A DNA stretch of 64,000 nt from Escherichia coli. GTDB taxonomy: Bacteria; Pseudomonadota; Gammaproteobacteria; Enterobacterales; Enterobacteriaceae. Made by a program: the position numbers and the translations under genes. The notes below the pieces were generated by a model. The model was given only the letters and a program-made list of their open reading frames with translations. It made no database searches and was not told the origin of the DNA. The stretch lies in NCBI RefSeq assembly GCF_003334305.1, contig NZ_QOWS01000012.1. One strand, 5' to 3'. Shown piece after piece: positions 52,813 through 53,035 of the stretch. Positions within the stretch are counted from its first letter, which is position 1, and every line of letters begins with the position of its first letter.

Positions 52813-53035
52813 ATTGCCTGATGCGCTACGCTCATCAGGCCTACAATATCTATTGCAACATGTTGAATCTTCGTGCGTTTGTAGGCCGGATAAGGCGTTC
52901 ACGCCGCATCCGGCATTAGGTGCTCAATGCCTGATGCGCTACGCTTATCAGGCCTACAAAATCTATTGCAACATGTTGAATCTTCATGCGTTTGTAGGCG
53001 GATAAGGCGTTTTCGCCACATCAGGTAAGAGTGAA
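52813..53035. repeat. REP/BIME cluster: two tandem ~108 bp units each holding a pair of REP palindromes
   Basis: gcctgatgcgctacgc(t/c)(c/t)atcaggcctac and gtaggc(c)ggataaggcgtt(c/t)(a/t)cgcc(g/a)catccgg repeated. Confidence 0.85.

Follow-up and report, generated by a model that had tools for sequence, protein, structure and literature searches.

Two tandem BIME-1-like units between exbD and yghA of Escherichia coli as a probable RNA decay barrier

The gap between the convergent genes exbD and yghA of Escherichia coli holds two tandem BIME-1-like units, together an atypical BIME, and we consider it about 85% probable that they act as an RNA decay barrier in the 3′ region shared by exbBD and yghA. 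A bidirectional barrier, serving two converging mRNAs, is the best-supported mechanism. The cluster is REP222, an already catalogued member of a known repeat class; as a textbook enterobacterial repeat that has already been used in published mRNA-decay experiments, the locus is in itself of little discovery value. Coordinates refer to the window, the whole 64,000-nt stretch of E. coli DNA analysed here, unless another locus is named.

Upstream of the cluster lie exbB (51640–52374, +), delimited by open reading frames and RefSeq annotation, and the exbD coding sequence (52381–52806, +), placed by the ORF list, the RefSeq annotation under megablast hits and the hairpin register. The convergent neighbour is yghA, whose 885-nt coding sequence (53078–53962, −) follows from the ORF list and RefSeq annotation; the convergence of exbD and yghA had been recognized in the sequence-only reading that preceded this work, and it holds. 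The REP cluster is extragenic, contained in the 271-nt gap between the two genes, and the spacer of K-12 MG1655 is equally long and nearly identical to it. The TAA stop codon of exbD occupies 52804–52806, and pairing in the first REP hairpin begins 9 nt further on. The K-12 RefSeq feature table lists no repeat features, and the REP number was therefore taken from the literature, where the catalogue entry for the locus is REP222 (a–e, '5 REPs'; PMC10100675). We count four REPs against the five catalogued, and the fifth element is plausibly the terminator hairpin described below. As an observation on annotation, ExbB (WP_000527844.1) is labelled 'tol-pal system-associated acyl-CoA thioesterase' by RefSeq/PGAP in many genomes and 'Ton complex subunit ExbB' in K-12; the former looks like a propagated misannotation.

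The two units follow each other within 52815–53026, and in each a y-type REP is followed, across a 36-nt L linker, by an inverted z-type REP. A direct repeat of 72 nt (52815–52886 vs 52928–52999) shows 96% identity at a spacing of 113 nt, and a gapped alignment of the whole units (52815–52927 vs 52928–53039) is identical in 99 of 115 columns. The tandem arrangement had been read correctly from the sequence, whereas the period of about 108 bp given for it had not, the measured value being 113/112 nt. Tandem Repeats Finder reported no repeat for the cluster, because the copy number is only two.

Unit 1 opens with the y-type REP GCCTGATGCGCTACGCTCATCAGGCCTAC (52816–52844, +; −15.3 kcal/mol), an iREP on the + strand with CTAC at its 3′ end. 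Its L linker (52845–52880) contains the palindrome CAACATGTTG and, on the − strand, the IHF-like core ATTCAACATGTTG at 52856–52868. The unit closes with the z1-type REP GTAGGCCGGATAAGGCGTTCACGCCGCATCCGGC (52881–52914, +), which has GTAG at its 5′ end on the + strand, folds at −20.9 kcal/mol around a 2x2 internal mismatch and is identical in alignment to the z REP of five paralogous loci. A 14-nt inter-unit linker, ATTAGGTGCTCAAT (52915–52928), joins this unit to the second, which begins with the y-type REP GCCTGATGCGCTACGCTTATCAGGCCTAC (52929–52957, +), an exact match to a published REP. Both y REPs read GCCTGATGCGCTACGC[C/T]ATCAGGCCTAC. The second L linker (52958–52993) is identical to the first at 34 of 36 positions, with its IHF-like core at 52969–52981 (−), and is followed by a degenerate z REP, GTAGGC-GGATAAGGCGTTTTCGCCACATCAGGT (52994–53026, +), which matches the repeat family at 85% and folds weakly.

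Folded as RNA, the intact REPs reach −13.2 to −20.9 kcal/mol, and each of the three has a typical REP mismatch or internal loop. The fourth (52994–53026) has suffered a 1-nt deletion and four substitutions; it reaches only −9.6 kcal/mol without recovering the REP fold, and has kept its GTAG while losing the stem. The proposal of two oppositely oriented REP palindromes per unit is right, with the correction that the fourth element is decayed. The two palindromes quoted with that proposal occur verbatim, the y type at 52816–52844 and 52929–52957 and the z type at 52881–52914. Folding of the 291-nt region gave z = −6.8 for the + strand and −7.0 for the − strand. Three exact ATCMGGCCTAC REP feet lie inside 125 nt, compared with 1.3 expected per 64 kb with one mismatch allowed, and a 20-nt linker core occurs twice against an expectation of 0.01. 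A chance origin of the REP cluster is excluded.

By definition, a REP is an imperfect palindrome of 30–40 nt whose foot bears a conserved GTAG, or CTAC when read from the opposite strand (PMC3333891), and all three intact hairpins carry one or the other there. When the REP consensus was checked, the unit-2 y REP (52929–52957) proved to be the first 29 nt of the published 30-nt REP GCCTGATGCGCTACGCTTATCAGGCCTACG (29/29; PMC11208160), and the reverse complement of 52881–52915 differed from the published z-type TGCCGGATGCGGCGTAAACGCCTTATCCGGCCTAC at a single loop position (1/35). Binding by TnpA-REP needs non-complementary bases within the stem (PMC3333891), and the predicted folds contain such mismatches, a C/T mismatch in y and a 2x2 internal loop in z1. 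Matching places number at least 34–40 per E. coli genome (median, among the matches listed). Matches to published REPs, an Rfam score and the recurrence of the unit in every E. coli genome, both described below, all support the identification as REP/BIME.

As to the class of BIME, BIME-1 (RIB/RIP) has been described as a single-copy element in which y and z1 REPs flank a long conserved L linker, often with an IHF site (PMC3333891). A y REP and an inverse z1 REP around a long L linker is also the layout of both units here, and the z loop reads TTCA, as in the BIME-1 paralogues, whereas the REP325/naRNA4 model has TTTA. BIME-2, by comparison, comprises tandem arrays of y and z2 REPs across a short S linker (PMC3333891), and the in-unit linkers of the exbD cluster are 36-nt L-type linkers. 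Since the y-L-z1 unit is duplicated at exbD, we class the cluster as an atypical BIME under the same scheme (PMC3333891).

A coding function of the interval was considered and dismissed. The cluster is overlapped by ORFs of 40–81 aa, some of them antisense. A 63-aa ORF at 52814–53005 (+) begins at TTG and was rejected as a small protein; the other overlapping ORFs were likewise rejected as genes, since all of them cross REP palindromes that recur genome-wide and the segment is lacking from 29% of genomes and reduced to half in others. Elsewhere in the window, the only other near-match to REP motifs is a lone REP-like foot at 43559–43572, where ATCCGGCCTAT (+) overlaps GCCGGATGTG (−). Four further stretches of the window (3597–3746, 3973–4122, 12815–12963 and 47040–47103) reach the gathering threshold of an Rfam model, and the families are two SIB RNAs (antitoxin sRNAs), an FMN riboswitch and the ES173 sRNA.

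Transcript ends bear directly on how the cluster would work. A hairpin at 53044–53074 (+), with a 12-bp stem containing 7 G-C pairs and a T7 run reaching 53081 (−20.5 kcal/mol), is the only terminator-like site in 52300–53500, and its GC-rich stem and following T run have the pattern of a Rho-independent terminator, which we assign to exbBD as a predicted intrinsic terminator. The T run overlaps the yghA stop codon (53078–53080, − strand). E. coli alleles keep this hairpin whether filled or empty, and four other Escherichia-genus loci have it in substituted form; where the units are missing, it sits by itself 4 nt from the exbD stop. It had been suggested from sequence that such clusters act as mRNA stabilisers or terminators, and here the two roles come apart: stabilisation finds support, while the real terminator lies beyond the end of the interval then described and downstream of the REPs. 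All four REPs are upstream of this terminator and are therefore part of the exbBD 3′UTR; exbBD transcripts would run through all of them before ending at 53044–53081. Read from the − strand, this hairpin leads into CAUCAUUG and not into a U run, and yghA transcription is thus expected to leak into the REPs from the opposite side.

Published Northern and tiling-array data from K-12 provide the evidence for stabilisation at this locus (PMC10100675). Among the transcripts most raised by NaF-induced ATP depletion, exbB, exbD and yghA (REP222) rank 3, 11 and 17, and the half-life of yghA mRNA rises from 2.8 to >16 min with NaF (PMC10100675). A probe over the REPs detects a yghA decay intermediate of about 300 nt, and the degradation of both yghA mRNA and this intermediate depends on RNase E and the degradosome scaffold (PMC10100675). 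The mRNAs of exbB, exbD and yghA are thus stabilised when ATP-dependent degradosome decay is inhibited (PMC10100675), which supports the stabiliser role, although for exbBD the NaF effect is correlative. The full-length yghA band was published as about 1000 nt, and the 885-nt coding sequence with the whole 271-nt spacer would be longer; much yghA mRNA may therefore end at or near the first hairpin.

REP hairpins are established 3′-exonuclease barriers that are cleared by RhlB/PNPase (PMC3333891, PMC12306157, PMC10100675). In the mechanism we propose, the hairpins at exbD would block 3′-to-5′ exonucleases until the ATP-dependent RhlB/PNPase of the degradosome clears them, and since the barriers need this activity, the REPs may be expected to set the half-life of both mRNAs. 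A second effect may act on translation. Ribosome stalling has been reported for REPs that lie at most 15 nt from a stop codon (Liang et al. 2015, cited in PMC12306157), and the first REP hairpin, 9 nt past the exbD stop, would fall within the range for stalling a terminating ribosome.

An RNA-level function of quite another kind has been studied for REP325, from which naRNA4 derives as the Z2-l-Y unit, cotranscribed with its upstream gene; a discrete HU-binding, nucleoid-condensing RNA has been studied for REP325 only (PMC4550694). The inner z1-linker-y pair of the exbD cluster (52884–52954, +) scores 68.1 bits against the Rfam naRNA4 model (RF02564), above the gathering score of 59.5, and would, judged by the position of the terminator, be transcribed within the exbBD 3′UTR, much as naRNA4 is transcribed with the gene before it. 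On this model, the pair might be processed into a naRNA4-like non-coding RNA that binds HU and bridges REP cruciforms. We regard this as very improbable, because RF02564 would in practice describe any two adjacent REPs, and relative to that model the exbD pair has a y hairpin 7 nt shorter, z1 in place of Z2 and a different linker.

The comparison of copy number among strains, suggested by the sequence-only reading together with the idea of a rearrangement hotspot, supports that idea: zero, one or two units occur, and IS621 and IS200C have inserted at the locus. Of the 5,426 complete E. coli genomes that we surveyed, 1,575 (29%) have the empty junction TAAA|AATGATGCCC. Filled alleles carry an additional segment of 233 nt, mapped by alignment of 2-, 1- and 0-unit alleles to 52808–53040. 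At least 80% of a 551-nt probe was covered in 3,592 genomes, which corresponds to one or two units. The one-unit allele has a 158-nt spacer and is a chimera with unit 1 on its left and unit 2 on its right, as expected from unequal recombination. We estimate from spread sampling and identity bands that it is present in about 100–430 genomes, a few percent, and that two-unit alleles, taken as the remainder after 0- and one-unit alleles, account for about 60–65%. Both figures are estimates because the z-linker-y junction, used as a two-unit-specific probe, is not locus-specific, similar junctions elsewhere being at least 95% identical.

The 0-, 1- and 2-unit alleles could constitute a strain-level regulator of the TonB energising complex. 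Two-unit strains would then have a longer-lived exbBD mRNA, with ExbD translation damped by the REP 9 nt from the stop codon; 0-unit strains, among them UTI89, an O25b:H4-ST131 isolate and one cryptic Escherichia lineage, would end exbBD directly at the terminator; and the ExbB:ExbD ratio and iron-uptake capacity would shift between lineages. We consider this regulatory role highly unlikely.

The y REPs are also targets for insertion sequences. The natural target of IS621, a bridge-RNA recombinase element, is the 11-nt ATCAGGCCTAC with a CT core (PMC11208160), of which the cluster has two exact copies, at 52834–52844 and 52947–52957. In strains SRY149 and VE-T2, IS621 follows ...ATCAGGCCT of the unit-2 y REP, an insertion that we estimate, by sampling with a longer probe, to occur in roughly 100–270 genomes. 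Insertion into the unit-1 y REP was found in at least 7 genomes and confirmed in strain KKa014. The insertion points correspond to 52955/52956 and 52842/52843 of the window, and in one examined strain locus the element spans 2806–4079. Because some strains have IS621 in one y REP and others have it in the second, the cluster must have been hit at least twice independently. First junction counts of 931 and 553 genomes were discarded as inflated, since IS621 copies sit in similar REP contexts at other loci. The GGCC|TAC position is reported as a TnpA-REP cleavage site (PMC3333891), and it is the same position that IS621 takes. In MSB1_7C, an IS200C (1538–2248 of its locus) has entered the exbBD terminator within its T run, immediately ahead of the yghA stop codon (window equivalent ~53077), with both REP units intact. 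We searched supplementary tables of IS621 insertion sites, of REP transcription and of RepRanger for exbD/yghA and found no entry. The filled and empty alleles, the one-unit recombinant and the two IS621 hits make the locus a natural test bed for how REP copy number affects exbBD/yghA expression and for IS621 target choice.

Related units are dispersed through the genome. Every one of the 5,426 complete E. coli genomes has a place where a 105-nt probe for one whole unit matches over 80% or more of the probe, and in genomes without a unit at exbD the best match is a paralogue with 85–89% identity over 97–100% of the length. Six single-copy paralogues were identified, downstream of an rpn gene, glnS, fbaA, ybbP, gldA and ybiT; all six align through y, linker and z, and each has its y REP as the element nearer the 3′ end of the gene before it. 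Their linkers are 34–36 nt long and 60–72% identical to the exbD linker. At exbD, the two ends of the 233-nt segment (52807–52815 and 53027–53040) read GTAGAATT... and ...GAGTGAATTTAC, and resemble the conserved flanks of single-copy paralogues, with ..GCAAAATT before y and ..AAAGCnCAC after z, which suggests that the inserted or excised unit includes flanking motifs. The exbD cluster belongs to this dispersed family, and at this site the unit has been duplicated, deleted or never inserted depending on the lineage.

The same site is occupied in several relatives. Strain E69, 94–95% identical to the window, has one intact unit, and Escherichia strain SCPM-O-B-8794 (92.7% identity) has two heterogeneous units joined by an inter-unit linker, ATTCGGTGCTTAAT, that is similar to ATTAGGTGCTCAAT and in the same position. 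One decayed y-L-z unit follows exbD in E. albertii, and Escherichia sp. MOD1-EC7003 has the same empty junction as 0-unit E. coli. From these alignments, a BIME at the exbD site appears to be older than E. coli itself. The empty allele may be either ancestral or the product of a precise loss. As a separate observation, E. albertii NBRC 107761 (locus 7360–7520 vs window 53106–54688) lacks yghA and yqhA: beyond the terminator, only about 30 nt from the end of yghA are left before the sequence switches to the 3′ end of gpr.

With 29% of E. coli genomes lacking the cluster and a decayed copy alone in E. albertii, it follows that any function is dispensable and that the element may be largely neutral. 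This leads to the possibility that it is essentially a neutral remnant spread by RAYT/TnpA-REP, with no selected role at the site, whose persistence, duplication and decay reflect drift, unequal crossing-over and gene conversion. The coexistence of 0-, 1- and 2-unit alleles, the decay of the fourth REP, the heavily mutated E. albertii copy, the unit-1/unit-2 chimera with its fit to unequal recombination, the coincidence of the 233-nt insert ends with conserved paralogue flanks and the interruption of the cluster by IS elements in many strains all agree with it. However, transcripts bearing the cluster respond as REP-stabilised mRNAs do elsewhere, six of six single-copy paralogues share one orientation in which y is the first REP beyond the gene 3′ end, and a BIME is kept at the same site in four of five Escherichia-genus lineages examined. 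These three points suggest that the position is at least tolerated, perhaps favoured, and we give the neutral account roughly one chance in three. It is compatible with the decay-barrier mechanism, from which it differs on selection only.

The L linkers point to a further possible role on DNA. The core AYTCAAnnnnTTG is at the matching position in 7 of 9 aligned linkers, and the linker core ATTCAACATGTTG differs from the IHF consensus WATCAANNNNTTR by one mismatch, although such matches occur at chance frequency in the window (62 found by the consensus scan vs 62 expected). From this motif, the L linkers may bind IHF on DNA. The cluster might then be mainly a nucleoid or topology element, with IHF on the L linkers and possibly gyrase or Pol I on the REPs, which would provide bending and supercoil insulation between converging transcription units and leave the RNA effects secondary. 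Reports place an IHF site in BIME-1 L linkers and describe binding of IHF, Pol I and gyrase to BIMEs (PMC3333891, PMC2817692); the position of the IHF-like core is kept across paralogous linkers despite their overall identity of 60–72%, and the element lies between convergent genes, where positive supercoils build up. Against these points, the one-mismatch core is by itself not above chance, gyrase cleavage is reported to be enriched in BIME-2 (y-z2, short S linker), from which the exbD units differ in construction, the literature, including a supplementary IHF ChIP table, yielded no IHF ChIP data for the exbD-yghA locus, and the cluster is missing from 29% of strains. A mainly DNA-level role is therefore doubtful in our view.

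Compared with BIME-1, the exbD cluster shares the short-form y REP, the 36-nt L linker with its IHF-like core, the inverted z1 REP and the placement of y first at the 3′ end of a transcription unit. BIME-1 has, however, been described as single copy (PMC3333891), whereas two tandem units are present here, the exbD linker is 1–2 nt longer than those of the BIME-1 paralogues and 60–72% identical to them, and the second z REP is degenerate. From the atypical BIMEs nothing substantive separates the cluster: a multi-copy array of y, z1 and L, a short inter-unit linker and a strain-variable copy number are common to both, and this is the class into which it falls. With BIME-2 and naRNA4 (REP325) it shares the alternation of y and z REPs, but it lacks an S linker, has z1 and not z2, a short-form and not a long y, and two units in place of six. 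The likeness to known REP mRNA stabilisers lies in 3′UTR hairpins upstream of a terminator and in transcripts that are stabilised by ATP depletion or degradosome defects; by analogy, the first exbD REP, 9 nt after the stop codon and inside the 15-nt limit, may also resemble the stop-proximal REPs that stall ribosomes. In Salmonella enterica subsp. diarizonae, a single different REP, GTAGGCCGGGTAAGGCGAAGCCGCTACCCGGC, lies downstream of exbD (240–300 of its locus, −) with TTTTT directly after it, and this one REP with its T run occupies the place that E. coli gives to a BIME and a separate terminator.
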